Origin: an uncultured Bacteroidales bacterium
Lineage (GTDB): Bacteria; Bacteroidota; Bacteroidia; Bacteroidales; Bacteroidaceae
Assembly (NCBI GenBank): GCA_902768125.1
Contig: CACXKA010000005.1
Span: 23,643 to 87,642, forward strand
DNA length: 64,000 nt
Direction of reading: 5' to 3'
Positions 2,073 to 64,000 of this stretch are shown here, piece after piece (the first letter of the stretch is position 1; the number at the start of each line of letters is the position of its first letter). Under the pieces are notes generated by a model. It searched no databases. It was given only the letters and a program-made list of their open reading frames with translations, and was not told the DNA's origin. Both the position numbers and the translations under genes were made by a program.

Positions 2073-4100
2073 TTACCAAATTTTCACACGTTTCTCTTTC
2101 GGGACAAACATGGGGTCTTTTTCTGTGATGCCAAATGCTTCATACCAAGCATCGACCAAAGGAAGGGCACCATTCACACGCCACTTGCACAACGAATGCG
2201 GGTCGGAAGTGGTGAGGTTGCGGATTGCCTCCTCTGTGATGTTGCTTGCCCACACCCCTGCGTATGCCAAGAAGAAGCGTTGTTCAGGTGTGAAACCGTC
2301 CTTCACAGGCAGCGGATGCTCCTTGGTGGCATTCTTGAAAGCCGTATAAGCAAACTTCAGACCACCATGATCACCTAAATTCTCGCCACAGCAGAGGTCA
2401 CCATTCGCATTCAGATCGGGCAGCACCTTGATGGCTGAGAAGAAGTCCTTGATGACTTGCGCACGTTCGTTGTATTGGTCTCCATCCCCTTCTGCCCACC
2501 AGTCGCGGAAATTACCATCCTTATCGAACTGGCGACCCTGGTCGTCAAAGCCATGCGACATCTCATGACCAATCACCACACCGATGGCTCCGTAGTTGAA
2601 GGCATCATCTGCGTCCATGTCAAAGAACGGGTACTGGAGGATGCCGGCTGGGAAGCAAATTTCATTGGTTGTGGGGTTGTAATAGGCATTCACCGTCTGA
2701 GGATTCATGTACCATTCATCCCTGTCCACAGGCTTCTTCCACTTGCGTTCCAGCATATCGGCATGAGCCCACTTTGCCACCTCCTTCATGTTCTCGTAGA
2801 GCGTCTTCTCGGGGTCGATGTTCATCTTCGAATAGTCACGCCACTTGTTGGGATAGCCCACCTTCACATAGAAGGCATCCAGTTTCTCGTGGGCAGCCTT
2901 CTTGGTCGATTCGCTCATCCATTCCTGTGCGTCGATGCGTTCGCCCAGTGCAATCTGGAGGTTCTTGATCAGTTGCTCCATACGTGCCTTGTTGGCGGGT
3001 GGGAAGTATTTCTCCACATAGATTTGTCCCACAGCCTCGCCCAACACGCTGTTCACGATGCTCACACTGCGCTTCCAACGAGGACGTGGTTCCTTGGCAC
3101 CTGTCAGGATGCGACCATTGAAGTCGAACACCTCCTCATACACCTCATCGCCCAGCATGGAACCAGCCGAATCCAGTATCTGCCATTGCAACCAGTCTTT
3201 CAGCACCTCCACCGATGTGTCTTCCCACACCTTCAACGCCTCTTTGATAGCTTCGGGCTGACCCACGGAGAGAGAATCAATCTCTGTGAGTCCCTGCACA
3301 TCGAAGTAAGTCTTCCAATCATAGCCTGCATACTCCTTCGTGAAGTCTGCAAACGACATCTTATGGTAGTTGGAGGCAACATCACGCAATGCCACATTGT
3401 CACGCCCAGCCTTTGCCATCCTGATTTCCAACGCCACCACGTTCTCAGTCTTCTTCTGGGCATCAGCAGGTGTCTCGCCCACAAACTGGAACATCTTCAC
3501 GATATGTTTCCTGTAGGCATCCAAGATTTTCTTGTTCTCCTCATCCTCCTTCACGTAGTAGTCACGTTCCAACGAGTAGCCGCCTTGAGCGATTTCCAGC
3601 AGGTTCTGCGTGGATTCCATCATGTCGGCACCCACATAGCTGCCCCACAACTCTCCGAAGCCAACACCTTCCACGTTCATCTGGTTGATCAACTCCTTCA
3701 GTTCAGCTTTGGTCTTCACAGCCGCCACACGTTTCAAATCCACCATCACGGGCTTCACGCCATCCTTGTTCTGACGCACGGAATCCATTCTCAAGGCATA
3801 GATGTCGCCAATCTTCTGTCCCAGCGAACCCTTCTCCTGAGGCTGAGCCGCCAGTCCTTCGATAATCTCACGGATGCGTTTCTGGTTCTCTTCTGCCACC
3901 ACGTCAAAACTGCCATACCTTGAAAACTCAGGACGCAGGGGGTTGTTCTTCAGCCAGCCACCACAGGCATATTGATAAAAGTCCGTGCCAGGCTTGGCGG
4001 TCATGTCCATATTCTCCAACTTGATGCCCATTGTCTGGGCATTCGCCATCGTCGATGCTACCATAGTCATCATCATCAAAATGTTTTTACTTTTCATCAT
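2073..4100 (-). CDS. pepO: M13 family zinc metalloendopeptidase (PepO / endothelin-converting-enzyme-like)
   Basis: 675 aa with a signal peptide. It has the NAYY motif, the HExxH site VIGHEMSHGFD, and a C-terminal ...RVKIW typical of M13 peptidases. Confidence 0.9.
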   Translation of the reverse strand: MMKSKNILMMMTMVASTMANAQTMGIKLENMDMTAKPGTDFYQYACGGWLKNNPLRPEFSRYGSFDVVAEENQKRIREIIEGLAAQPQEKGSLGQKIGDIYALRMDSVRQNKDGVKPVMVDLKRVAAVKTKAELKELINQMNVEGVGFGELWGSYVGADMMESTQNLLEIAQGGYSLERDYYVKEDEENKKILDAYRKHIVKMFQFVGETPADAQKKTENVVALEIRMAKAGRDNVALRDVASNYHKMSFADFTKEYAGYDWKTYFDVQGLTEIDSLSVGQPEAIKEALKVWEDTSVEVLKDWLQWQILDSAGSMLGDEVYEEVFDFNGRILTGAKEPRPRWKRSVSIVNSVLGEAVGQIYVEKYFPPANKARMEQLIKNLQIALGERIDAQEWMSESTKKAAHEKLDAFYVKVGYPNKWRDYSKMNIDPEKTLYENMKEVAKWAHADMLERKWKKPVDRDEWYMNPQTVNAYYNPTTNEICFPAGILQYPFFDMDADDAFNYGAIGVVIGHEMSHGFDDQGRQFDKDGNFRDWWAEGDGDQYNERAQVIKDFFSAIKVLPDLNANGDLCCGENLGDHGGLKFAYTAFKNATKEHPLPVKDGFTPEQRFFLAYAGVWASNITEEAIRNLTTSDPHSLCKWRVNGALPLVDAWYEAFGITEKDPMFVPKEKRVKIW

Positions 4101-34506: not shown

Positions 34507-36987
34507 TCACTTCGTTGAATTGCTTGTTCCAAAATAACTATAATGATTGTTGTCTGGATTGACCACAATTTGCTCCACCACTATCTCAGGATCTATCATC
34601 ACGACCTTCAAGGTATGCTTGCCTGCTGTGACATTCGAGAAGGTCGCATCAAGCCAGCGGAGGTTGTCAAACACTTCGTCGCGACGGGGAAGCTTCCTAC
34701 CATTCCAAAAACCGCTTAATGCGAGACGACCTTGAGGAGGCAGTGGCTTGAGCACCTTTGAGCGTGCAAGATTCTGAGGTGTGTATTCCTGAAACACATC
34801 ATTCAATCCCCTTCGGGCATCAATGGTCTGCATGGGTTGGTCGTCCAGTTGCACACCCAAACGAAGACCACGGGCAGGATAGATGTCTTGGGTGGGAAGG
34901 ATACCAATGGCGACGGAGAGTTGAGCATTGAGTGGAGAGTCGTCGATGTCATATTCCAACACAGCACCACTATTCTCCGCCAAAACGTTGTCACTACCCA
35001 TGCAACCCTCACCACGTCCAAGATTGGGCAGGAACATCCATGAAGCACCCGAGCCACCACTTTTACGGCTATACTTAAAAGCAGGAATGCTATACTCACT
35101 GGTTGGCGTCGCACTGCTGGCGATATGGTCAACCTTGAATCCGAGAGTTGTGGGATTGACATTTTTGTCGGGAATCGACCACCTCGTATAGCCAATGTGA
35201 TTGTCTTGCATCATCTTGTTCCACTTCCCACCTGCTATCCGATGATAAAAGTCGCTGAGTTGCTGGTCGCGCGCCATCAACTGCTCCACAAGGTTTGAGT
35301 TGCCACGAGTGGAAGCATTGTAAATCATCGCCACCCCTGCACTTGCCACCACGGGATAATACACCAACTGGTAGTAAGCATCCTGTGCTTCAGCAGGAAT
35401 CTTCGTGCGCAATGCCTCAGCACGAGCAGAGAGGGAAAGCCAAAGGCTGTCGATATAGGACATCTCTTCGTTGTTGAAGATGCCTGGCACCTGCACCTCA
35501 GGTTTGCGCCAAAGGTTGTATTTGGAATATTTGGCAATCAGGTCAGCGATTTCAGCAGCATGTTCCTCACCAAAGACAGAGCAAGCGAATTGCTCCAGCC
35601 ACGCCTGTTCTTCACCCACCTTGACGGTCTCGGGGTTCCAGGCATAGTGCATGATGAAGTCGATGGGCACTTCCTTGGGTTTCAGGTCACCCACATTGAT
35701 AATCCAGATGCGGTCAATGCCTGTCTGGTAGGCAAGATTCAACTGTTCACGGAGTTTGGGAATGGTGGTGGTGTTCACCCATCGGTCGTTCCAAGGACCG
35801 CCATTCATGTCGATGTGATAGTAAAGACCGAGACCGCCCTTCCGCTTGCGTTCGAAATCACGACCGATACGACGGAGATAGCCCCAGTTGTTGTCACAAA
35901 AAAGCAGGGTTACATCATCAGGCACAGTGAAACCTGCGTCATAATAGCGTTGCACCTCCGTGAAGATGGCCCAGAGTTGTGGCACGGCATCCTCACGTCC
36001 ATACAGTTTCTTGATAATCTTTCGCTGCCCCTTGATGACCTCGCCGAGCGTCTTCATATTGTCAGCATCGTCACCAGTACCCATTGCCACGTCGCCGTCA
36101 CCACGCATACCGATGGTCACGAGGTTGTCATAATTCTTGTTACGCTGCATGCCCTCCAAGAAGAACTGATCAATCCGCTCCTTATTGGTGGCATAATCCC
36201 AAGGACCCACCTGCTCCTTGCGATGCAGATATTCCTGATGAGCCCGCATCATTGGTTCGTGGTGCGAAGTGCCCATCACAATGCCGTATGCATCCGCCAA
36301 CCGAGGACTCTCCTCATCATCCTCGTTAAAGGCAGTCGCCCACATGGCTGGCCAAAGATAGTTTGCCTTGAGGCGCAAGAGAAGTTCGAACATATGAGCA
36401 TACATCTTGGAGTTGACACCTCCGAAATGCTCCGTTGCCCAACCACCAAACGAGGGCCATTCGTCATTGATAAAGATGCCACGATACTTCACCTTTGGCT
36501 CACCATCAGTGTATTCACCCTGATTGACAAATATCTGTTCATGCTTCGCAATTGGTGCATCAGCCCACCAATACCAAGGACTGACACCAATCTGGCGGGA
36601 GAGTTCATAAATACCGTAGATAGTGCCACGCTTGTCGCTACCAAGAATGACAAGCTTATTGCCATCTATGGTGATGATGTACTGCTCCCACTTGCCCTGC
36701 AACTGCTTTGCAAACTGCTTGTATTTCTTCACGCACTGGCTCTTTCCAACCGTACCCACCACGATAGGAGCACACTCACTGCCCGTCACAGCCACCAAAT
36801 CCTTACGGAGATTGCCAACCGCAATCCTCACTCCCTCCCAATCAGCAGGATCATAAAGGATGGTGTCAGCACTCCCTGTGAGACACAACTGAGTCGCCTT
36901 CTCTCTGGAAAACGTGACGAAGGATTCGGTTGCCCATATACAAGATGCAGACCATACGCACAACAACAATGGCAATAATTTTCTCAT
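34507..36987 (-). CDS. GH115 family glycoside hydrolase (xylan alpha-glucuronidase type), paralog 1
   Basis: 826 aa with a signal peptide. It carries GVSPWYWWADAPI, KYRGIFINDEWPSFGGW and ELLLRLKANYLWPAMW. It is clearly paralogous to 42117-44519. Confidence 0.75.
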   Translation of the reverse strand: MRKLLPLLLCVWSASCIWATESFVTFSREKATQLCLTGSADTILYDPADWEGVRIAVGNLRKDLVAVTGSECAPIVVGTVGKSQCVKKYKQFAKQLQGKWEQYIITIDGNKLVILGSDKRGTIYGIYELSRQIGVSPWYWWADAPIAKHEQIFVNQGEYTDGEPKVKYRGIFINDEWPSFGGWATEHFGGVNSKMYAHMFELLLRLKANYLWPAMWATAFNEDDEESPRLADAYGIVMGTSHHEPMMRAHQEYLHRKEQVGPWDYATNKERIDQFFLEGMQRNKNYDNLVTIGMRGDGDVAMGTGDDADNMKTLGEVIKGQRKIIKKLYGREDAVPQLWAIFTEVQRYYDAGFTVPDDVTLLFCDNNWGYLRRIGRDFERKRKGGLGLYYHIDMNGGPWNDRWVNTTTIPKLREQLNLAYQTGIDRIWIINVGDLKPKEVPIDFIMHYAWNPETVKVGEEQAWLEQFACSVFGEEHAAEIADLIAKYSKYNLWRKPEVQVPGIFNNEEMSYIDSLWLSLSARAEALRTKIPAEAQDAYYQLVYYPVVASAGVAMIYNASTRGNSNLVEQLMARDQQLSDFYHRIAGGKWNKMMQDNHIGYTRWSIPDKNVNPTTLGFKVDHIASSATPTSEYSIPAFKYSRKSGGSGASWMFLPNLGRGEGCMGSDNVLAENSGAVLEYDIDDSPLNAQLSVAIGILPTQDIYPARGLRLGVQLDDQPMQTIDARRGLNDVFQEYTPQNLARSKVLKPLPPQGRLALSGFWNGRKLPRRDEVFDNLRWLDATFSNVTAGKHTLKVVMIDPEIVVEQIVVNPDNNHYSYFGTSNSTK

Positions 36988-37129
36988 ATCGGTTTTATCT
37001 TGTTAGTAAATAGAAAGCGTGAAGGTACATCCCACACAAAACGCGTTGCAAAGTTAGAGATTTTCGTTGAAACCCACTTTGCAACGTGTTTCATATATTT
37101 GCGCGTATGTTACTTGTTACATTTATTTC

Positions 37130-37177
37130 AAATAAATGTCCTCAGTGTCATCGGTGTCATCGTCATCGGTGTCATCG
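37130..37177 (+). repeat. 48-nt direct repeat, left copy
   Basis: The sequence is AAATAAATGTCCTCAGTGTCATCGGTGTCATCGTCATCGGTGTCATCG. Its first 10 nt are half of a 21-bp palindrome, ACATTTATTTCAAATAAATGT (37120-37140). Confidence 0.95.
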
Positions 37178-37183
37178 ATGCCA

Positions 37184-37224
37184 CATAAAAGCGTATCTCT
37201 CAAGCCGCGTGGCTCGAGAGATAC
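37184..37224 (-). terminator. rho-independent terminator of the 779-aa gene (stem overlaps the stop codon)
   Basis: On the minus strand the stem is GTATCTCTC...GAGAGATAC, followed by GCTTTTATG. Confidence 0.7.
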
Positions 37225-39539
37225 TTTTCTGTTTTACGATACTTTTTCGTGATTTCGTCGTAGCTGATGAATCCTCGCTTGGTCCATTGTGCCAGCTGAT
37301 CCTTGGGGCTTGGGTTCTTTTTGCCTTGCTGAATACGGATGGAGCGGCATTCCTCACGACTGAACTCATCGGGCAGCAGGTCGAGCATGTTGGCTATTCC
37401 GCCATGAGCCACCTTCTTCTCCACTTCCATGTCTTCACCAAGTGCCTCGCTGAAAAGGTTCATCTTGCACCACATGTCATAGTCGAACGACCAGCGGCAG
37501 AAGTTTTCAATCTCGGACGACCATTTCTGACCGTTCATGATATAGAGCACACAAGCCTTGCGGAAGGCAATCACTGCACCACGACGCGCCAAGATGCGAT
37601 AGCCATCATCATCGAACAATGCTGCACGTTCAACACCCAGCTTATTGAGGTCGTTAGCCATCTTCTTGGCTTGCTGACAGACGATGATTCCTTGATTCGC
37701 AGCCTCATCCAGCAGTTGCAAGTATGCCATCATCTGCTGCTCGTACTTCTCATCGTAACGCTTATAGACGGGAATCACACCATTATCTTCCGTCTCAGGG
37801 ATGGTGCAGAAGTTGAGACGTGACACGGTGCCGTCATTGACATTCTTGCGAAAGAATCGGATGGCTGTGGAAGGTGTGGTCGATGCATTCCAACACCAGC
37901 GCATAGGGGCACGGGCAGTCACGGATTGTGCGCCTACACGCTCCTGACCATACATATCCGTATCGAAGTTGCGACAGATGATGCGGCTCACCATCTCTTT
38001 CGACGAACCTCCAGCCATCTTCGACAGCATCTCCACTTCATCCATACGCGTGTAGAGACATTTGTGGCCTGCTCGTTCAGCATCTGCCAATCGCTGGGTG
38101 AAGGCGGCGTTGGTCATGTCTGAATCGTTCACTTGGATGCAGATGTCTGTAGGGCGAACCACACCTTTCTTGTTGGCAGACTTGCTGTTTTGCCCGTCCT
38201 TCCATTCCTGCTCCTGCTCTCTGCAAAGCTTGTCACGGGCAATAATGTCCTTCAGGCAGATGTCAATGGGCTTCTTGATGCACGACTTACCTGTTGACAT
38301 GGGCGCCACCAGCACGTTCATCATTGTCGCCTCCATCTCCGAATTGTCTGCATACTCCAGTTTCACTCCTCCCATACGAGTTGCCCAAGCAGGGAAGATG
38401 GCGTGTGCCATAGCAGGGCGGCAATGTTCTGGCACCTTCGAGATGGCGATGCGGATGGGAGTGGGCAAACGGCGTGGCATCTGCGGTTCCCTCATCAGTG
38501 CCTCACGGCTCTTTCCCTGCTCCATGTTCAGACGGCGACGGCAGAGGTCAAGGGTCAGTTTCATTTTCTGGCTCATGGCAGCCGACTGCTTGCGCTTGCA
38601 GGCACTCCGAATGGTTTCCGTCACTCGCTCATGACTCTCACCATAGTCGGGCAGGATGCTGCGAATCCACTGAGGGTCGTCGTTGCAGATGTGGCGCAGA
38701 TGGCAACTCATCAAGAAGATGAAGTCATTCCTGTTGCCATGCTCAGGTGCACCTCCCAACTGGTCAGCCAGTTCCTCCACAATCATCGTATAGGGGATGC
38801 CACGATACTCAGTAGAATAAATACCCTCGGTGTCATCGCTGTCATCGTCATCGCTGTCATCGGTTGCGGGTTGAGATTTCGGCTGAGTTTTCAGCTCGCG
38901 TCCATCAATGTCAAGCCCACGGTCGGTGTAAGCCTTGCGACGCATTGCCACTTCTTCGTCAGAGAGCCGCTTTTGCCAATCCTCGCTCGTATAGAGCTGA
39001 GAGGCAGCATCCGTGATGTAGATCATGCGTTCGGGCGAGCAGCAGTCAAGGTCGAAGTCCACATCCAATGCCTCCGTGTAGGCTTTCTGAGCCTCTACGA
39101 TGGTCATGCCTACGGGGATGCGGATGTCCAAGTGCAGCTTCTTGCTGGCAGAATACTCCACATGGAGCAACATACCCTTCCAAAGCCCTTCCTCCTTGTT
39201 AAGAAGGTACGCACGTGAAAGGGCTGGTGCCACCTGCTTCTCATCGTCGATATCCACACAGGTCTGAAACGTGAACTCCTCAGGCAGAATGGCATCTTGC
39301 GCACGATGGTTATCTGCGAAACGGAAGTAATGCGGACAGCGGAAGGGCAGCATACCCTTCAATCGACGACGCTCATCTTTATCCTCCGTCGCACGAATCT
39401 GGTGAATCAAACTTGTCACCTCGTCGGACTTGGTGACGTTAACAAACTCCTCGAGCGTGTGCTCGAACACTTGCCCCTTGGGGGCGCGAACCTTGGGGTT
39501 CATTGCAATCATCTTGCAGTTCAAATTTTCTTTTGTCAT
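37200..39539 (-). CDS. putative replication protein: VirE-N/BT4734-like primase-type N-domain fused to a P-loop NTPase (DUF3987-like)
   Basis: 779 aa. The N-terminal pattern is RRLKGMLPFRCPHYFRFADNHRAQDAI...FQTCVDIDD. An acidic linker (DDSDDDDSDD) follows. Walker A is VLVAPMSTGKS and the Walker-B-like motif is CLYTRMDEVE. The family assignment is from memory, not from a search. Confidence 0.6.
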   Translation of the reverse strand: MTKENLNCKMIAMNPKVRAPKGQVFEHTLEEFVNVTKSDEVTSLIHQIRATEDKDERRRLKGMLPFRCPHYFRFADNHRAQDAILPEEFTFQTCVDIDDEKQVAPALSRAYLLNKEEGLWKGMLLHVEYSASKKLHLDIRIPVGMTIVEAQKAYTEALDVDFDLDCCSPERMIYITDAASQLYTSEDWQKRLSDEEVAMRRKAYTDRGLDIDGRELKTQPKSQPATDDSDDDDSDDTEGIYSTEYRGIPYTMIVEELADQLGGAPEHGNRNDFIFLMSCHLRHICNDDPQWIRSILPDYGESHERVTETIRSACKRKQSAAMSQKMKLTLDLCRRRLNMEQGKSREALMREPQMPRRLPTPIRIAISKVPEHCRPAMAHAIFPAWATRMGGVKLEYADNSEMEATMMNVLVAPMSTGKSCIKKPIDICLKDIIARDKLCREQEQEWKDGQNSKSANKKGVVRPTDICIQVNDSDMTNAAFTQRLADAERAGHKCLYTRMDEVEMLSKMAGGSSKEMVSRIICRNFDTDMYGQERVGAQSVTARAPMRWCWNASTTPSTAIRFFRKNVNDGTVSRLNFCTIPETEDNGVIPVYKRYDEKYEQQMMAYLQLLDEAANQGIIVCQQAKKMANDLNKLGVERAALFDDDGYRILARRGAVIAFRKACVLYIMNGQKWSSEIENFCRWSFDYDMWCKMNLFSEALGEDMEVEKKVAHGGIANMLDLLPDEFSREECRSIRIQQGKKNPSPKDQLAQWTKRGFISYDEITKKYRKTEKYLSSHAA
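38814..38862 (+). repeat. degenerate third copy of the 48-nt boundary repeat, inside the 779-aa CDS
   Basis: GAATAAATACCCTCGGTGTCATCGCTGTCATCGTCATCGCTGTCATCGG is about 42/48 identical to the boundary repeats. It encodes DDSDDDDSDDTEGIYS on the minus strand. Confidence 0.85.
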
Positions 39540-39579
39540 ACACTTAAAATTTTGAAGTTAAACAATCAAATTATCACTG

Positions 39580-39587
39580 CAAAGTTA
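39580..39587 (-). promoter_or_regulatory. -7 promoter box TAACTTTG for the 779-aa gene
   Basis: It is the reverse complement of CAAAGTTA within CACTGCAAAGTTATATA, 40 nt upstream of the ATG at 39539. Confidence 0.55.
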
Positions 39588-39652
39588 TATATAAATGTAT
39601 GCGGTTCAAAGTATTTCAGCCCTTAAAGCCACTTCAAAAAGGCTTTTTGAGA

Positions 39653-39694
39653 AGTCGGAAAAAACTTGGAAAAATGTCGGAAAATGTCGGAAAA
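39653..39694. repeat. iteron-like array: four (T/A)GTCGGAAAA / CTTGGAAAAA units at 10-12 bp spacing
   Basis: AGTCGGAAAAAA starts at 39653, CTTGGAAAAA at 39665, and TGTCGGAAAA at 39675 and 39685 (an exact tandem). The array lies just upstream of the 779-aa gene promoter. Confidence 0.75.
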
Positions 39695-39731
39695 GAGTTG
39701 GAGGTTTGTTGGGGAAATTTGCTCTAGAGAG

Positions 39732-40391
39732 TCAGTTGAAAAGCCACATGTAGGCAGCTACACACATACCCACAATAGCAGCAACCATCATTACATAAGA
39801 AAGAACTCTCCCCACACGGTTGACTGGTTCTGGCTGGTCTTGGACTTTCTTTTGGCCATAGGTAATCTGCCAATCCTGATAGAGATGTTTGATGCCCTCA
39901 AAGCTATCAGAAGAGATGAGACTGAGGTCTTCTATTTCCTCGTTGTCGGCAGCTGCCAATAATTCGTTAATTGTCTCATACCCCTCAAACACCTCGTCGA
40001 AATCTTGACTTTCCAGATAGTATAATCCGCCAACAAAGATTTCGTCTGCCTTGCCATTGTGATAGTGAATGAAGTAATCATCATCTGATTCAATGTCAAG
40101 GAATTTCAGATACACGTCTTGACCATCCAGCCACTTCTTATCAACACTATCAACTGGCACTGCTGAGGCAACAAATAGGTGTCCAGGACCATTCTCTTCT
40201 GGTTCTTCAACCTCCTTGACTTTCTTTTTCTTGATCATAGAAAGCTTGGGGTCCATCGCCAGAATCAGCATGACAACAAACAGCATGAGCAACCATTTCC
40301 GAGCATTGGCATCATCCATCTGAAGCGCAATCATTAGCACGACCACAGCAACCACAACAAAAACTAATGAAACAATCTCTATCTTTCTCAT
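39732..40391 (-). CDS. hypothetical membrane protein (two N-terminal and one C-terminal TM helix, acidic soluble middle)
   Basis: I chose the ATG at 40391 (MRKIEIVSLVFVVVAVVVLMIAL...). The longer track ORF (to 40577) would overlap the upstream gene by 180 nt and adds a Pro/Ser-rich tract. No family recognised. Confidence 0.55.
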   Translation of the reverse strand: MRKIEIVSLVFVVVAVVVLMIALQMDDANARKWLLMLFVVMLILAMDPKLSMIKKKKVKEVEEPEENGPGHLFVASAVPVDSVDKKWLDGQDVYLKFLDIESDDDYFIHYHNGKADEIFVGGLYYLESQDFDEVFEGYETINELLAAADNEEIEDLSLISSDSFEGIKHLYQDWQITYGQKKVQDQPEPVNRVGRVLSYVMMVAAIVGMCVAAYMWLFN

Positions 40392-40398
40392 AACAAAC

Positions 40399-40989
40399 TT
40401 AAAATTCCAGACGGATTTTGCGGGTGAGGACAGGTGCGAACTCGAGGGCGATTTGGTTGCAGATGGAGCGGGCAGCGGCGAGGGTGGGATTGAGGTAGGA
40501 CGTTGATGTCCAGAAGGGCCACGATTCATTTTGATCCATGAGGTAGGCGTAGTCGCCATTCTTGCGGACAGTATCACGTCCTTTGCCGGGAATCATGGAA
40601 CAGATGAGGGTGTCGAAGCGATTGACGGAGGGGTTGTAGAGGATGCCCTCGTCTTTCATCACACGCATGACATGCGCCCAAGTCCAGTTCTCCTGCTTCG
40701 AGCCGATGATGTCGTCTATCTTGCGGATAATCTCAATCAGCTGTTGCGCCTTTTCGGGGTTACGGAAACGAGGCTGGAAGTCACGAGGCATCTTGTGAGG
40801 GTCGATTTCCTGACCTTCACGCAAGCGTCGGAGCAATTGGCGTGCCTCGTCAGTACAGTTCTGCTCGTCGCCCCACCGCTCTATGAGTTCGATGTAGGGG
40901 CGTCGTTGGGCTTCTGTTGCTTTCGACTGAGCAATGCCAAGCACATACTCCACGGGTATGGGTTCAATCCCAGTCAGCGTCGTCTTCAT
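40399..40989 (-). CDS. hypothetical protein (no family recognised)
   Basis: The frame is open to 41019, with ATGs at 41019 and 40989. Either start overlaps the upstream ORF's stop (40964), by 56 or 26 nt. Confidence 0.5.
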   Translation of the reverse strand: MKTTLTGIEPIPVEYVLGIAQSKATEAQRRPYIELIERWGDEQNCTDEARQLLRRLREGQEIDPHKMPRDFQPRFRNPEKAQQLIEIIRKIDDIIGSKQENWTWAHVMRVMKDEGILYNPSVNRFDTLICSMIPGKGRDTVRKNGDYAYLMDQNESWPFWTSTSYLNPTLAAARSICNQIALEFAPVLTRKIRLEF

Positions 40990-41677
40990 GCTTGAATCCT
41001 TCAATGAGTTGGTCGGCATTCAATTGGTTGGTCACTTTCTGGAAGTCAAGGTCATCCGAATGGAAACGAACGGTGATCAGGTCTGAACAGTAAGACCTGT
41101 ACACACTCATCTGATAATTCAAATCGTGATAGATTTCCTTGCATGTACCCTCTGAATAGAAGTAGAAACCCTGATGGCGGTTGCTGCGGACACGGTAAAC
41201 GGAACCAGGCTTGCCGAAACCTTGCATGCACCACACGTCAAGTGTGGCTTCAAAGTTATAGATTGGTGTCTCTTCCTCCTTTTTCCCATCCGTTTCTTCC
41301 TTCTTCGTTGGCATGACAATCTTGCAGCCCAACAGCTTCATGCGTTCCAAGATGCATTCTGCCCCTGCTGGCTCCAGTTGCTGGCTGTCGTATTCAATCA
41401 TCTTGGCAATCCAATAGATGTTGGTGGCGTAGCATTGCTGCGTCTCAGAATAGGAACAGAGCACACGGCAGTCGTGCAGCTCAGCATAGTCAACGAGCGT
41501 GCCCGCAGGAAATTCCTCACCTTCGTCGATAACAGGGTACGAGGCACTGTCCATAATGCCTCCAGCAGCCTCCTCATCGGCGTTCCATACCATCAGCGTG
41601 GCAATATGCCTGCCGACCTTGCCCCCAGCGTAGATGACGTTGTAGGGCGCATTCAGTTTCAATAGTTTCGAGTTCAT
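40964..41677 (-). CDS. hypothetical protein (no family recognised), first gene of the cassette
   Basis: 237 aa. The ATG lies 4 nt downstream of a perfect TAACTTTG box, so the mRNA is probably leaderless. The C-terminus is acidic. Confidence 0.55.
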   Translation of the reverse strand: MNSKLLKLNAPYNVIYAGGKVGRHIATLMVWNADEEAAGGIMDSASYPVIDEGEEFPAGTLVDYAELHDCRVLCSYSETQQCYATNIYWIAKMIEYDSQQLEPAGAECILERMKLLGCKIVMPTKKEETDGKKEEETPIYNFEATLDVWCMQGFGKPGSVYRVRSNRHQGFYFYSEGTCKEIYHDLNYQMSVYRSYCSDLITVRFHSDDLDFQKVTNQLNADQLIEGFKHEDDADWD

Positions 41678-41681
41678 GGTG

Positions 41682-41689
41682 CAAAGTTA
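41682..41689 (-). promoter_or_regulatory. -7 promoter box TAACTTTG, 4 nt from the ATG at 41677 (leaderless transcript likely)
   Basis: The minus strand reads TAACTTTGCACCATG. Confidence 0.55.
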
Positions 41690-41724
41690 CGAATTAGCAG
41701 GCACAACACAAAATCTTATAGAGA

Positions 41725-41768
41725 CAAAAACGATGACGATGACACCGATGACACCGATGACACCGACC
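41725..41768 (-). repeat. inverted copy of the GTGTCATCG-unit array
   Basis: The reverse complement reads GGTCGGTGTCATCGGTGTCATCGGTGTCATCGTCATCGTTTTTG. Its units are A-A-A-B, against A-A-B-A in the boundary repeats. Confidence 0.85.
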
Positions 41769-41797
41769 TATTTTTTGTCATCGTTTCGAAAAGAAGG

Positions 41798-41863
41798 TTA
41801 TTATTATAGTTATTATTATATATGTATATTATATATCTAATAATTTAAATATAATAAATAATA
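41798..41863. other. 66-bp tract with 3 G/C (95% AT), candidate DNA-unwinding element
   Basis: The sequence is TTATTATTATAGTTATTATTATATATGTATATTATATATCTAATAATTTAAATATAATAAATAATA. It lies between the inverted array and the right direct repeat. Confidence 0.6.
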
Positions 41864-41885
41864 CCCTACACACCGCCTCACAAAA

Positions 41886-41933
41886 AAATAAATGCCCTCA
41901 GTGTCATCGGTGTCATCGTCATCGGTGTCATCG
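41886..41933 (+). repeat. 48-nt direct repeat, right copy
   Basis: The sequence is AAATAAATGCCCTCAGTGTCATCGGTGTCATCGTCATCGGTGTCATCG. It has one mismatch to 37130-37177. Confidence 0.95.
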
Positions 41934-42116
41934 TTTTTGCTGCCTCACTAGGAAAAATTTGTTACCCTTAGGGGCCGCAAAATTCCTTCGTAAGGGCTAT
42001 AAACAAACACGAAAAGAGCCGACGGGGAAACCCCAAAGAGGCGGCGGCAAAGCATGGTTTTGCCGACGGCAAAAGGCAAAAGAGCCGACGGCAAAGCAAA
42101 AATGGGGGCGGTTGAA

Positions 42117-44519
42117 TCACTGCATTGTGATTTTCTGAATCATCTGCCCTGGGTCGCCAATGATGAGGGAGAGGGTGTGGCGCTTCTTCTGGCGGTCAAT
42201 CGGGAGGGTGAGGATGAAGTCCTTGCGATTCTCAATCACCTGAAGTTTCCAGCTCCAACCCCATTCTTCGAATTTATTTTCGCAGACAATGGGGGTGCAG
42301 CTATCGACACTCACACCAAAGCGGTTGCTGCGGTCGGTGGCAATAGGCCAGAAGGGAACGGCAGAGATGCAGAGGGTGACGGAATCGGCATTGGTGGCAG
42401 CGTCGAAAGTCAGGTCGATGTGGGAAGAGGAGAGGCTGGCTGGGTTCTGCACAGGATCGAGAGGCTCACCCAGTTGGAGGGAGAGCCAGTCAGTGCCGAT
42501 ACCTTCGATGAGGTGGAAAGGACTGCTGGCTTTGACTTTGTTCAGGGGAAGCTTGTGGGCAAACTCCGTGCGCTCCTGATTTTTCGGCAGTCGGTAGGCA
42601 ATGGTGGGTGCCTTGACGAGTTCGGGCATCTGATGATATTTGGCAGTGTAGCCAGGAGGAATCTCGGAGATCATCTGGTTCCACTTGCCTGAGAGCATGG
42701 TGTTGTATTCGTGGGTCAGGGCATTGATGCTGTCGAAGGCGGCTTGTGCCTCTCGTGCCGCTTCCTCGCTGCCTGTCTCGTGGTTCTTCTGCGCCATGAG
42801 GAACTTGCGGTTCATCTGGTAGGCACCCTTGACGGCATAGCCAAGCATCTCGAAGAAAGCAGGACGATATGCCTGTGGCAACTGCTTCATGATGACATCC
42901 ACTTGGTCGCTGATGGCTTGATAATCAGCCAATCGCTGTTGGGCAGTGCCTGTCTCGAAGGAGAAATCGGAGTCGTGCAGTCGGTTGTTCTCATTGTTGT
43001 CCCACTCAAACTCATAACCCATGAATTCGGGTTTGCGCTGCCAAGCAAGGCGGTAGTAGGTGTTCAATATTGAGTTGAGGGTTGAGAGTTTAGAGTTGAG
43101 AGGGAATACTTTCGCGAGCCACTCGGCTTGGTAGCGGTTTGCCTTCTCATAGTCGAAAGCAGCAAGATCCCAAGCCATATCGAAGAAGTGCTGCATCTCC
43201 ATTTCCATAAGCTTGATGTCGCCCACATTGAGCAACCAGTAACGGTCGGCTCCAGCATCGTAGGCTTTCTTCAGCTCTTCGTACATCAGCACTGGCGAGG
43301 TGGTGGCTATCCAAAGGTTGTCGTGGGGCGTGCCCAGATAACTGAGGTGGTAATAGACACCGCTGCCTCCCTTGCGCTGCCGCTCCTGCGCATTCGACAC
43401 GCGCTTCATGTAACCATAGTTGTCGTCGGGCCACACGAGGGTGATGTCGTCAGGCACTCGAAGCCCTGCGTCGTAGATATCTAGGGTTTCCTTGTAAGGC
43501 ACGAAGATTTGAGGAATGTCGGTGGCTGGTTTCCGTTTGTGGGTTTCCAATATCTGACGCTGGTCAGCAAAAACCTGCTCCAATGTGCGTGCCCTCACGT
43601 TGTTGTCTGTGGAGCCTTTCATCGCCTCATCGTGCAAGCCACGCATACCCGTCGTGTAGATATTGTCGTATTGTGCCGTTTCACGAAGGCGGTCATCAAA
43701 CTTTTTCCAGATGGTTTCCTTGTTGGTCAGGTAGTTCCATTCACCATCCACCTCCTTGTTCCATTCGGACTCAGCCGCATTGTTGAAAAGCAATGGTTCG
43801 CAATGGCTCGTGGTGATCATAATCCCCCACTCTGCCGCCTTCACCTGACTCTCAGGATGGCTATAGAAAGCGCCCGTGCAGGAGTGCATGGCAGGAGCGA
43901 GCATATTGGCTTTGAGACGAAGCAGGAGTTCACACACTTTGTCGTAGGTTTTAGGACCAATATCTCCCAACTCCTTCTCAAAATTGCGGGCAGCCCAAGT
44001 CTGCAAGCCCCAATCCTCATCGTTGATGAAGATGCCACGATACCTGATGGTAGGCGATTTTGAGGTATAGTTTTCCTTGTAATCGAGAGTGGTCTTCTGC
44101 TGCACTGGCACATCGGCAAACCAATACCAGGGACTCACGCCGATGCGTTCGCTGATATGAAAGGCACCATAAGCCACACCACGAGGGTCACTGCCAATGA
44201 CATACAACCTCTGCCCTTTCGTCACAATCTTATAGCGCTCCCATGCCCCTTGCAGTTCATCAGCAGCGACCTCTGGACAAATCTTCTTAGCCTCATCCAG
44301 CGTGGCAAGAATGACCAAAGGGGTGTTGTCTGAAGGAGTTGTCTGAAGGACAGAAGGACGAACCGACGTAACCCGTTCAATATCCTCACTCAACACATGG
44401 GCTATCTTCTTCACCAATGCTGCATCGTGGTCAGACACAACCATGCGACAACGCTTCAAATCGACAGCATGGGCACACAAGCACACACCTGCGAACAAAA
44501 GCAACAGAAGTCTTCTCAT
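42117..44519 (-). CDS. GH115 family glycoside hydrolase, paralog 2
   Basis: 800 aa with a signal peptide. It carries GVSPWYWFADVPV, RYRGIFINDEDWGLQTW and ELLLRLKANMLAPAMH. Confidence 0.75.
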   Translation of the reverse strand: MRRLLLLLFAGVCLCAHAVDLKRCRMVVSDHDAALVKKIAHVLSEDIERVTSVRPSVLQTTPSDNTPLVILATLDEAKKICPEVAADELQGAWERYKIVTKGQRLYVIGSDPRGVAYGAFHISERIGVSPWYWFADVPVQQKTTLDYKENYTSKSPTIRYRGIFINDEDWGLQTWAARNFEKELGDIGPKTYDKVCELLLRLKANMLAPAMHSCTGAFYSHPESQVKAAEWGIMITTSHCEPLLFNNAAESEWNKEVDGEWNYLTNKETIWKKFDDRLRETAQYDNIYTTGMRGLHDEAMKGSTDNNVRARTLEQVFADQRQILETHKRKPATDIPQIFVPYKETLDIYDAGLRVPDDITLVWPDDNYGYMKRVSNAQERQRKGGSGVYYHLSYLGTPHDNLWIATTSPVLMYEELKKAYDAGADRYWLLNVGDIKLMEMEMQHFFDMAWDLAAFDYEKANRYQAEWLAKVFPLNSKLSTLNSILNTYYRLAWQRKPEFMGYEFEWDNNENNRLHDSDFSFETGTAQQRLADYQAISDQVDVIMKQLPQAYRPAFFEMLGYAVKGAYQMNRKFLMAQKNHETGSEEAAREAQAAFDSINALTHEYNTMLSGKWNQMISEIPPGYTAKYHQMPELVKAPTIAYRLPKNQERTEFAHKLPLNKVKASSPFHLIEGIGTDWLSLQLGEPLDPVQNPASLSSSHIDLTFDAATNADSVTLCISAVPFWPIATDRSNRFGVSVDSCTPIVCENKFEEWGWSWKLQVIENRKDFILTLPIDRQKKRHTLSLIIGDPGQMIQKITMQ
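43069..43103. repeat. 7-nt tandem array (GAGTTGA-type units) inside the GH115 paralog 2 CDS
   Basis: The array reads ATTGAGTTGA GGGTTGA GAGTTTA GAGTTGA GAGG. It encodes NSKLSTLNSIL on the minus strand. Confidence 0.85.
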
Positions 44520-63100: not shown

Positions 63101-64000
63101 GACCACCTATGGCATCTTGCTCAGCATACAAGAGTACATCACCAAGAAGCATTGGAATGTGGCGTGTCTGGATGAAGCACACATCATCAAGAACCGAGGC
63201 GCCAAGACCAGTGCTGCAGCCATGAAGATACAGGCAGACAACCGAGTGATGTTGACGGGTACGCCTGTGCAAAACCACTTAGGTGAGCTGTGGAGTCTCT
63301 TCCAGTTTGTCAATCCTGGACTCTTGGGAAACTACGAACATTTTTCCCAGAAATTCATCATCCCCATCGAAGGACACCAAGACAAGGAGAAGCAGGCACA
63401 ACTCGAAAGCATTGTACATCCCTTCATGCTGAGACGTACAAAGCAAGCTGTGCTGAAGGAACTTCCTGAAAAGACAGAAATATACCATGCAGTGGAACTG
63501 AACCGCGATGAACTCGCCATTTACGAGAGCATCCGCACTCGTGCCGAGAAGATGCTGCAAGCCTCAGGAGCAGAAATTGACATGCATGTATTGGCGGAAA
63601 TCACCCGATTGCGACAGGCAGCATGTAGCGCCCAGCTCATCGAACCCAAATGGGCAGGCGAATGCTCTAAGATCACGGCACTTACAGAACTGCTGCAAGG
63701 TGTCATCGAGGGTGGCAACACTGCCTTGGTATTCAGTCAGTTCGTCAGTTTCTTCGACCTCGTCAGGAAAGAACTCGATCGTCTCGGAATGCCTTACTTC
63801 TACATCGATGGAAGTGTACCGATGAAACAGCGTACAGACATGGTCGATGCCTTCCAACGTGGCGAGAAACCTCTCTTCCTCATCAGCCTCAAGGCTGGTG
63901 GATTGGGCCTCAACCTCACACAAGCCAACTATGTCTTCCATCTCGATCCGTGGTGGAATCCTGCCGTTGAGCAGCAAGCCACCGACCGAACCTACCGTAT
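60144..64000 (+). CDS. SNF2-family helicase with an N-terminal region of about 890 aa of unknown function; 3' end outside the window
   Basis: This ORF is not in the supplied track. Frame 3 is open from the stop at 60054-60056 to the window end, and the first ATG is at 60144. My hand translation gives the following SNF2 motifs. Motif I: LRPYQKNGYLW and LADDMGLGKT. Motif II: LDEAHIIKN. Motif III: LTGTPVQNHLGELW. Helicase-C region: LISLKAGGLGLNLT. Motif VI: QATDRTYR. A TACCTTCG -7-like box lies at 60109-60116. Confidence 0.9.
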   Translation, partial: MVFDKYEQLSEDAQRLLCFYADTGLDSNKRMDEHIYILGQYCFKVFNGKAALEELIQKGIFTEEGKDWYSNMPKYGINEDDFIPVLWYLYEYRKDLLLTFKKLQPISGQTYMFVRYAVKQLVESNYQLCSSANVIGKDQVHLFYSVATEPRFQPLFENFQTESFIQFYGHLSNYLINQDMVVDPTLALTIISHYNAITESVRCRLLAEIELYEYIATGQTPSGGIYSNISAGFIMGALRNLCASKHLESAQWFDMALKTQLKEGGKRGYFSNGLMTFYLVLSYMVVASESKEENEKIATACRNRLKELVANMEVRTNHAMLPARILAEDFCNINISLHREQVQHCYEWGVKGVLPPIYRSLAFLIANYLGYSTSEMDLNPCIPKLALLQHEMSKYLPLYDNERESLRHRFGDHPTLVNIYHKAEWESVLEDLMGEADGSKPVIEVPDTRLMYIRESNDSHVIQVREQTRLKNGAWGNGKRLSEARYRKGDLEYMNNADRRILARLNHSEHWELQLEHVIEEMVDESRLYVGRTAPFELVKVDRDKPYLIVEKEDDRFVVKSNVPLGNAKDDLVIVEDSPTHYSLINIPNEIRGYYVKLLQLGSLPLEAEDTLRSLLAKIGGKVELHSSLIEGGSTLPLVDGQWNVGFKLSPKQSSNWEVEIIVRPLQGGKKTFPLGKGDDTIIDENEEGRKRVKRNMEMERQNLELVRAFWHTEGYEEEEPVYPPEFMLDLVQLIQNNPDTFYAEWPEGQGFKIRSLSKGMGSWNGVLRQRGQWFDIEGDVNIDEQTRISISELLELVGKSKGKFVKIAEGEFLALSEKLRNQLKALDALANRERGKIKISPFSAALMGDELMDGEMKLHMDEKLLEIRQRILDSSNYSPAIPKELNATLRPYQKNGYLWIARLNSWGAGALLADDMGLGKTIQTITFLLLKKDEGPSLVVAPASVAPNWKTEMEKFAPTLNVEILNFSADRLKTIQDAKAGDVIVTTYGILLSIQEYITKKHWNVACLDEAHIIKNRGAKTSAAAMKIQADNRVMLTGTPVQNHLGELWSLFQFVNPGLLGNYEHFSQKFIIPIEGHQDKEKQAQLESIVHPFMLRRTKQAVLKELPEKTEIYHAVELNRDELAIYESIRTRAEKMLQASGAEIDMHVLAEITRLRQAACSAQLIEPKWAGECSKITALTELLQGVIEGGNTALVFSQFVSFFDLVRKELDRLGMPYFYIDGSVPMKQRTDMVDAFQRGEKPLFLISLKAGGLGLNLTQANYVFHLDPWWNPAVEQQATDRTYR

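Follow-up and report, generated by a model that had tools for sequence, protein, structure and literature searches.

The stretch of DNA considered here, a 64-kb window (64,000 nucleotides) of contig CACXKA010000005.1 from an uncultured Bacteroidales bacterium, carries a compact set of four minus-strand genes between two direct copies of a 48-nt repeat. A first-pass annotation had described this set as a cassette bounded by the repeats and inserted into the spacer of a GH115 gene pair, and had read it as an integrated mini-replicon with cargo genes. The flanking genes (34507-36987 and 42117-44519) are both assigned to GH115 by Pfam (E 1e-137 and 1e-123), lie on the same strand and share 31% mutual identity, and as the same pair is adjacent in three relatives (L014, L017 and L069), the insertion into the GH115-GH115 spacer holds. 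The 48-mer, AAATAAATG[T/C]CCTCAGTGTCATCGGTGTCATCGTCATCGGTGTCATCG, has two exact pattern matches in the window, at 37130-37177 and 41886-41933. They have the same orientation, are 47/48 identical with a single base difference and lie 4,756 bp apart from start to start; no such match appeared in 100 shuffles, so that the repeat pair is as first described. All four predicted open reading frames (ORFs) between the repeats are likewise present. In gene orientation these are p237 (40964-41677), p206 (40399-41019), a gene for a 219-aa membrane protein (39732-40391) and the gene for a 779-aa protein (37200-39539).

Besides the flanking pair, two further repeat copies had been overlooked, as had the hexamer substructure of the repeat. 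Within the 779-aa ORF, the minus strand contains a third direct copy (38815-38862; 88% identity), which is in frame and encodes DDSDDDDSDDTEGIY in a linker of the protein, and a partial inverted copy is found at 41725-41766, with very AT-rich DNA between it and the right 48-mer. The 48-mer itself is an array of GATGAC hexamers, and GATGAC/GTCATC clusters are confined to these four places in the window. The 9-mer GTGTCATCG occurs 11 times against 0.64 expected, its occurrence at 63700 being discarded as an isolated chance match. The left member of the direct pair (37130-37177), which in gene orientation forms the right end of the element, consists on the minus strand of four GATGAC hexamers plus GGACATTTATTT, and homology between element copies ends there precisely at ...ATTTATTT, abutting chromosomal DNA. 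Together with the adjoining chromosome, this end forms a perfect 10+10 palindrome (37121-37141; ACATTTATTT G AAATAAATGT), which is also seen in L014. A tRNA gene as the target of the repeats was rejected, the nearest one being ~21 kb off. The concern that the 48-mer could be a generic dispersed repeat can be set aside, because a degenerate 47-nt version of it was found at only 27 loci among 241 million metagenome records.

The right member of the direct pair (41886-41933, minus strand) is at the same time the left iteron arm of a larger palindromic unit of ~210 bp (41725-41933, minus strand), which lies upstream of p237 and was delimited by an alignment of all copies. Read on the minus strand, this unit comprises the 48-mer (41933-41886), ~20 nt of spacer, an AT-rich core (~41864-41798), CGATGACAAAAAATAGGTCGGT and the inverted GTCATC cluster (41766-41725). 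The same order emerges as a consensus over the aligned copies: the 48-mer with four GATGAC hexamers and GTGRGGGYATTTATTT, ~20 nt, an AT-rich core of 50-80 nt, CGATGACAAAAATAGGTCGGT and the inverted array GTCATCGGTGTCATCGGTGTCATCGTCATCG. In the window copy, four GATGAC hexamers per arm, in opposed arms and with one extra hexamer, surround an AT-rich core of ~67 nt, and as single-stranded DNA the unit folds into one hairpin with a free energy of -49.2 kcal/mol (z -9.5). An RNA gene was rejected, as this palindrome attracted only sub-threshold noise matches to miRNA models. The unit stands upstream of p237 in every element copy and has also been found alone. Clusters of short repeats flanking an AT-rich region in an element that bears an initiator-type gene correspond to the layout of iteron origins, and from this we infer that the ~210-bp unit may serve as a replication origin. 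Since the 48-mer is one arm of this iteron/AT-rich/inverted-iteron unit, the repeats cannot be taken for plain ends or att sites.

Of the 27 metagenome hits, about half correspond to complete units that have no core genes in their vicinity. In nine of ten cases these are co-oriented with the gene downstream, which is either an ordinary one (Rho, the YidC region, a fucose isomerase, SIS) or belongs to restriction-modification or TnpB-like genes. Such solo units are not explained by deletion between two 48-mers. Three of them may be described individually. At L094:4776-6716, the unit is followed by a 572-aa ORF with a PADLOC match to Cas12f/Cas12u (TnpB-like) and nothing in Pfam. At L120:527-3650, genes for a C-5 cytosine DNA methylase and an HNH_2 endonuclease, likely a restriction-modification pair, occupy the position that the core genes have in the islands. 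The third case is a locus upstream of a fucose-isomerase-like gene that is shared by L103 and L107 (reverse-complement coordinates 3733-3850 and 2215-3993, respectively), where one of the genomes has a 1.66-kb insertion of two genes, a formate/nitrite transporter and an endonuclease I, directly after the unit; the units of the two genomes are only 76% identical, whereas the flanking genes are ~90% identical.

The largest gene of the set encodes the 779-aa protein, for which the first-pass annotation had proposed a primase-type domain and a P-loop. A direct family assignment failed, as nothing scored above threshold in Pfam, PHROGs, NCBIfam, PADLOC or among PDB sequences (DUF3987 reached 17.9 bits with a cut-off of 27), and only the detour via distant relatives worked. 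Among 47 full-length relatives, collected with a family profile at E < 1e-100 and 26-57% identical, 17 match PF08800 (BT4734-like_N; best 2.2e-12), 10 match DUF3987 (best 6.4e-11) and one matches PriCT_1; several close homologs also carry a precomputed PF13148 match. The profile search proposed at the outset came out below threshold for the window protein and positive for some of its relatives, and because only the relatives match PF08800, the membership of the window protein is transitive. All three motifs of BT4734-like (VirEN) AEP primases, I (DxD), II (sxH) and III (hD), can be traced through the family: D96, D98 and D163 are invariant and S130..H136 (SASKKLH; S..GLH) is conserved. Walker A (G417-K418-S419) and Walker B (D500-E501) are invariant as well.

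An AlphaFold model of the protein (mean predicted local distance difference test score, pLDDT, 73.7) contains the fold of an AAA+ replicative helicase or initiator, and its best Foldseek matches are MCM2-7 subunits (E 5.5e-4, prob 1.0), ORC2/Cdc6 and the Cch helicase of SCCmec (staphylococcal cassette chromosome mec; 5dgk, prob 0.98). The domain order comprises a BT4734-like AEP primase (~aa 55-215), an acidic linker, a helical region, a DUF3987/MCM-like AAA+ helicase and a C-terminal domain (~aa 715-779) of the type helix-helix-helix-strand-strand, which by inspection of the model looks winged-helix-like. At the family level, relatives and structural matches together support the fusion of a BT4734-like AEP primase with a DUF3987/MCM-like helicase, which bears out the domain types first proposed. 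This is in line with reports that a PriCT-DUF3987 protein acts experimentally as a 5'-3' helicase partnering a BT4734-like PrimPol (AEP) in an integrated element (PMC11724360), and that fusions of an AEP with a helicase typically serve mobile elements as replication proteins (PMC5862659). A 30% identical relative in a phage-like IMG/VR contig speaks in the same direction. The family is large, with more than 2,600 homologs at E 1e-3 among 8,000 candidates scored and ~1,700 cluster representatives matched by a profile of close homologs, and the ratio of nonsynonymous to synonymous substitutions (dN/dS) of the gene is 0.07-0.08. A GC-rich inverted repeat (GTATCTCTC...GAGAGATAC; 37193-37224, minus strand), which overlaps the stop codon and is kept in all loci examined, is probably the terminator of the gene.

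The linker that carries the in-frame 48-mer is hypervariable (window 38800-38900; L002, L003, L005, L115, L121) and made up of short tandem DNA repeats, for example LKNQPSSEAQ units. The in-frame 48-mer is seen in the lineage of the window, L004, L101 and L005, whereas elsewhere in the family the linker is acidic and diverged or consists of different tandem repeats. In L002, a linker sequence of 42 nt recurs with 93% identity ~2.5 kb downstream, beyond the LUD_dom gene.

The two genes following the origin-like unit, p237 (237 aa) and p206 (206 aa), find no family in the four libraries (Pfam, PHROGs, NCBIfam and PADLOC) and no sequence match in the PDB. The first-pass annotation had regarded all three small proteins as cargo. 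As the architecture around them is constant and only one slot varies, p237 and p206 have to be regarded as core genes, and the designation as cargo fits the membrane protein alone. Both core proteins are conserved (dN/dS 0.11-0.26 for p237 and 0.06-0.16 for p206). Most homologs of p206 begin 10 codons later, so that the protein is probably 196 aa long with its start at 40989; its model is all-helical (pLDDT 81), matches nothing in the PDB or BFVD and shows no recombinase-like fold. The 219-aa protein, with three predicted transmembrane helices (by inspection ~residues 6-23, 33-46 and 196-218), occupies the variable slot between p206 and the primase-helicase gene. Elsewhere, this slot holds Schlafen/AlbA-HATPase-Fic-like and 738-aa ORFs (L005) or HigB/HigA (L122, L108), or is empty (L006, L105).

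What happened at the GH115 site can be read from allelic forms in other genomes. Exact look-ups of the two GH115 proteins returned filled sites only, and species-representative genomes scanned with the 826-aa GH115 pointed to a rumen Prevotella-like Bacteroidaceae as the host and yielded L014, a near-conspecific metagenome-assembled genome (MAG) from yak omasum. There, the GH115 genes are 378 bp apart and their spacer contains exactly one 48-mer, with the same sequence as the right member of the window pair. The flanks are colinear with the window and 97.3-97.5% identical, and the alignments of the two sides have precisely the 48-mer in common. The 4,756-bp segment is therefore a presence/absence polymorphism exactly at the repeat, and its direct 48-mers are shown to make it deletable. 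The allele of the form GH115-[single 48-mer]-GH115 that had been predicted thus exists, with the restriction that it is not a naive site. In the more distant relative L017, the spacer measures 171 nt, its right half aligns to the DNA right of the 48-mer in L014, and it lacks the 48-mer together with the DNA preceding it in L014 (~235 nt, 48-mer included). The spacer of L069 is of the same, ancestral type, without the 48-mer and the left-end sequence.

The missing sequence belongs to the element itself. Outside the repeat pair, the stretch from 41934 to ~42095 (minus strand; about 165-190 nt) recurs in element copies at other sites, namely in L005 (to 41984) and L101 (to ~42091). It comprises "flank A" (41934-41984) with CCCTAAGGG palindromes, followed by GCCGACGG-type repeats (42018-42098). 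As this homology continues past the right repeat, the 48-mers do not bound the cassette as had been claimed, and in gene orientation the inserted element runs from ~42095 down to 37130. Since the left-end region is retained in L014 but not in the spacer of L017, L014 represents a solo-repeat remnant or a docking site and no naive attB. Keeping the left end and one 48-mer is the outcome that would be expected from a crossover between the direct 48-mers, and the allele could equally be a docking site that was later re-used. L118, considered as a second empty allele (of the L105 site), had to be dropped because the shared flank is too short.

Two further variants of this locus were observed. In another species (L015:3916-9000), the same GH115-GH115 spacer holds ~5 kb with two genes of the Cache/HAMP sensor-kinase type and a 394-aa ORF without Pfam match, and thus the spacer has been remodelled more than once. 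In a strain variant with a 99% identical 779-aa protein (L124:2780-2940, window 37025 joined to 34512), the GH115_826 gene that would follow downstream of the island is missing altogether, and unrelated sequence lies upstream of the primase-helicase promoter.

Elements of the same build occur at no fewer than seven unrelated chromosomal sites in Prevotellaceae. Besides the GH115 spacer, these include a LUD_dom-gene site in several species (L002, L003, L104, L121, L122), a site between mraZ and the outer membrane protein (OMP)/priA region (L005), an AraC-type gene site (L006-L011) and further sites in L101, L105, L110 and L115. The order is constant: origin-like unit, p237, p206, variable slot, primase-helicase gene, conserved hairpin and then, in many copies, the 48-mer. 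The latter follows directly 3' of the primase-helicase gene in the window, L002-L004, L104, L105, L110, L121 and L122. It is also present at other module junctions, and stands as a bare 48-mer directly after p206 in L108-L110. Unit and core trio keep strict synteny throughout the element copies, and the trio is under purifying selection (dN/dS 0.06-0.26). A decaying remnant of a larger integrative element was rejected on these grounds, since independent sites show the same compact architecture and the core genes are so constrained.

The copies form a mosaic, which indicates that they recombine with each other. The cargo region of the window (39743-40540, ~800 bp) is 100% identical at the nucleotide level to that of L101, at a different chromosomal site, with 87-96% identity in the remainder of the element. 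This points to a very recent exchange of the 219-aa cargo segment between islands. At the same site, window and L004 differ by a divergent patch around the linker. Moreover, a second indel bounded in this way was met in L108 and L109, which are 99% identical and differ by a HigBA cassette between direct repeats of ~110 nt that contain the 48-mer; these exceed the 48-mer in length, which favours homologous over site-specific recombination. Rearranged forms were noted as well. In the lineage at the LUD_dom site (L002:8-1124, L104:190-1450), the p237-p206 segment is turned round with respect to the primase-helicase gene, with part of the unit beyond p206. At L100:4053-7256, the primase-like ORF that comes after the unit-p237-p206 module shares only 26% identity with the window protein, and the small-gene module can therefore combine with different initiator lineages.

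The element has no recombination machinery of its own. The first-pass annotation had seen no integrase, transposase, relaxase, capsid or terminase gene, and indeed none of these families was found in the four ORFs with the four libraries; among the called genes within 10 kb of any context, more than 10 copies at other sites are equally devoid of a recombinase. A tyrosine or serine recombinase or DDE transposase, which would mark an integrative element, does not appear among these genes, and no relaxase was called in or beside any copy.

Based on our data, the best-supported description is that of a family of small chromosomal islands (4-10 kb) in rumen and gut Prevotellaceae that lack a recombinase and are built round a replication module, a reading to which we give about an even chance. 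How such a module might work is a more specific proposal: the primase-helicase would act as the initiator and the GATGAC unit as the origin of an integrase-less chromosomal island. The 779-aa protein would bind the GATGAC arrays via its winged-helix-like C-terminal domain, open the AT-rich core, load as helicase and prime with its AEP domain. Through homologous recombination or slippage during replication, the direct 48-mers could cross over and loop out a 4,756-bp circle with all four genes and the complete unit, now directly downstream of the initiator gene; the direct 48-mers presumably make the segment excisable in this way. The predicted circle junction is ...GCTTTTATGTGGCAT-48-mer-TTTTGTGAGGCGG (37178 joined to 41885), and reads across a circle or tandem junction would contain ...GAGATACGCTTTTATGTGGCAT[48-mer]TTTTGTGAGGCGGTGTGTAGGG, as opposed to GGCAGCAAAAA[48-mer](A)GAAATAAATGTAACAAG for the solo allele. 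With one crossover, the circle could then insert again at any solo 48-mer of the chromosome.

Several observations weigh against this proposal. No free form was encountered: PLSDB gave 0 hits, a terminal overlap or circle junction is absent from every contig examined, and IMG/VR contains no match to p237, p206 or the 48-mer. Several of the many homolog contigs of 4.0-4.9 kb (L002, L003, L121, L122, L124), considered as circular plasmid contigs, all have chromosomal flanks and no terminal overlap. The mini-replicon with a free form that had been suggested at first thus finds no counterpart in PLSDB, IMG/VR or contig ends, and as no circular, plasmid or viral form was found, autonomous replication, and with it the term mini-replicon, can only be inferred. 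The viral data hold distant relatives of the 779-aa protein only; the sole IMG/VR relative, 30% identical, lies in a phage-like contig of 43.7 kb. Another distant relative, an 834-aa protein with 25% identity over the helicase part, makes up most of an unverified human-faecal virome contig (L123; MT839699.1, 4,086 bp). That contig has short repeats of its own (GGTCATTAAGGTCA) with an inverted partner directly after the gene, and no terminal overlap. Furthermore, L101, L005 and L006 have no terminal 48-mer and could not loop out by a repeat crossover, and the L014 junction was taken from a metagenome-assembled contig. On the protein side, the window protein itself stays below the Pfam thresholds, without a PF08800 match even at E 0.1, and an AEP fold is not among the top 50 structural matches of its model. 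Finally, BT4734-like primases occur in CRISPR-associated and DRT (defence-associated reverse transcriptase) systems, and AgaPP has repair activity (PMC11724360), so that a role other than that of a replicon is possible.

This last point leads to the alternative that survives best, namely a resident module, for example a defence or repair system with a VirEN-type primase-polymerase and a helicase, which would spread by homologous recombination of its flanks. The GATGAC unit would then be an operator or promoter, in agreement with its position directly upstream of the p237 promoter, and the 48-mers would merely be deletion-prone. Such a module would account for the missing free form and the strong purifying selection, and across species the family gives the impression of great age at the LUD_dom site. 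We nevertheless regard it as unlikely. Identical internal architecture with a sharp right boundary at this many unrelated insertion sites, segments of 100% identity in copies at different sites and a variable cargo slot typical of mobile islands are not what a resident module would lead one to expect, and none of the four proteins matches PADLOC. Moreover, iterons, an AT-rich stretch and again iterons beside a primase-helicase are the classic origin layout of SaPI (Staphylococcus aureus pathogenicity islands) and P4.

Mobilisation in trans, in the manner of a cis-mobilisable element (CIME), an integrative mobile element exploiting Xer (IMEX) or a satellite, appears rather improbable. Here, the 48-mer would be the attachment site for the recombinase of a helper phage, of an integrative and conjugative element (ICE) or of the host. 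The precise direct repeats with a single copy in the cassette-less allele, the sharp 48-mer edges in many contexts and the toxin-antitoxin and defence-like genes in the cargo slot, as in satellites, are all in accordance with it, as are the distant initiator relatives in the phage-like contig and in the 4-kb virome contig. However, the 48-mer consists by inspection of hexamers in the same direction and has no core between inverted recombinase-binding arms, and the repeats do not delimit the inserted DNA, since the solo allele keeps element sequence outside them. The ~110-nt repeats of the HigBA indel exceed the 48-mer, as homologous recombination would produce them, and several copies lack the terminal 48-mer altogether. 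No integrase lies within 10 kb in any context, and IMG/VR, which has no match to the 48-mer, p237 or p206, holds no close relative of the 779-aa protein either. Phage satellites would in addition be recognised by packaging or capsid-redirecting genes, a helper-responsive regulator and presence in particles; there were no PHROG hits, and viral data contain distant relatives only.

A bolder form of the island proposal, to which we attach a similarly small likelihood, sees here a class of mobile islands without recombinase in which the origin iteron array doubles as recombination site. Excision, re-integration and capture of cargo (toxin-antitoxin, restriction-modification and membrane genes) would proceed via initiator-bound or replication-stalled 48-mers, the solo units upstream of housekeeping genes would be docking sites, and the in-frame copy would keep site and protein co-evolving. 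Least likely of all, and in our view quite doubtful, is that the ~210-bp unit is itself mobile or recombinogenic, as a palindrome resembling a miniature inverted-repeat transposable element (MITE) or as a docking site, with the four genes as one of several captured sets in an integron-like hotspot: its inverted arms and sharp edges, the frequent core-less units with their co-oriented downstream genes and the two-gene insertion right after the unit in L103/L107 would suit it, but the 18 units inspected showed no target-site duplication, a transposase is lacking, the core trio never departs from the unit in element copies, the sample of 27 loci is small and the solo units could equally be remnants of decayed islands.

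The preferred reading, an integrase-less island around a replication module, may be compared with known replicative islands. SaPI and the related phage-inducible chromosomal islands (PICIs) also represent small chromosomal islands with their own primase and helicase-initiator and with accessory or defence-type cargo, and the SaPI origin, situated beside the initiator gene, is reported to have an AT-rich stretch with a set of short iterons on either side. Unlike the present element, PICIs use fixed att sites and carry genes for an integrase, a master repressor and packaging. Here, the integrated origin unit lies at the opposite end from the initiator gene, to which it would be adjacent only after circularisation, and a BT4734-like AEP primase is fused to the helicase. 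Such a fusion recalls the alpha protein of P4, a single primase-helicase-DNA-binding polypeptide of ~780 aa, and there as here repeated sequences of the binding-site type lie several kb apart: P4 ori and crr are separated by ~4.5 kb, the 48-mers by 4.76 kb with a third one inside the gene. However, alpha has a bacterial-type primase domain instead of an AEP and a different helicase family, P4 carries an integrase, a cos site and capsid-size genes, and no sequence similarity was detected (no PHROG hit). SCCmec, with its Cch helicase and CcPol primase, is likewise an integrated island flanked by direct repeats and equipped with a primase and an MCM-like helicase. SCC elements bring along serine recombinases (Ccr) and have rlmH as their one insertion site, whereas the islands described here have no recombinase and many sites.

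CIMEs and IMEXs share with the present element that direct repeats flank a recombinase-less element and that a single repeat remains in the allele without it. The repeats of CIMEs are att sites of a related ICE and the sites of IMEXs mimic the chromosomal dif site. Here, the repeat belongs to the element's own origin-like unit, recurs in the initiator gene and does not mark where the inserted DNA ends; a cognate integrase or ICE is not known. The number of integration sites and a 48-mer that by inspection has no dif-like dyad also set it apart from IMEXs. In phage lambda, ori lies within gene O, where initiator-binding repeats are read in frame as part of an inter-domain linker, and the in-frame repeat of the present element is found in the inter-domain linker of its putative initiator, too. 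Unlike in lambda, this copy is one arm without the AT-rich core, it is restricted to one lineage of the family and the full unit is located elsewhere. A further parallel is the AgaPP/AgaPH island, which has the same two families, has been proposed to encode the replication machinery of an integrated element and is surrounded by defence genes that are gained and lost (PMC11724360). In that island, which carries an integrase beside a tRNA gene, primase and helicase are two distinct proteins (PMC11724360), whereas here they are fused, and neither an integrase nor a neighbouring tRNA gene is present.

Full-text literature searches returned no description of this element. The 779-aa protein is a new member of known families, and the element resembles replicative islands such as SaPI/PICI, P4, SCC and the AgaPP island. 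It differs from them in having no recombinase, in ending on one side in a repeat copy of the arm of its own origin and in carrying this arm in frame in the initiator gene. Prevotellaceae dominate rumen and many human gut communities, and their small mobile elements are poorly charted. Should the excised circle replicate, it would offer a ready-made minimal replicon of ~4.8 kb for Prevotella genetic tools, of which there are currently few. The islands form a large family, sit inside polysaccharide-utilisation gene clusters and swap toxin-antitoxin, defence-like and membrane genes in their slot. Polymorphism and recombination between copies in the absence of integrase, transposase and relaxase raise the question how a replication module alone could sustain a mobile lifestyle in these bacteria.

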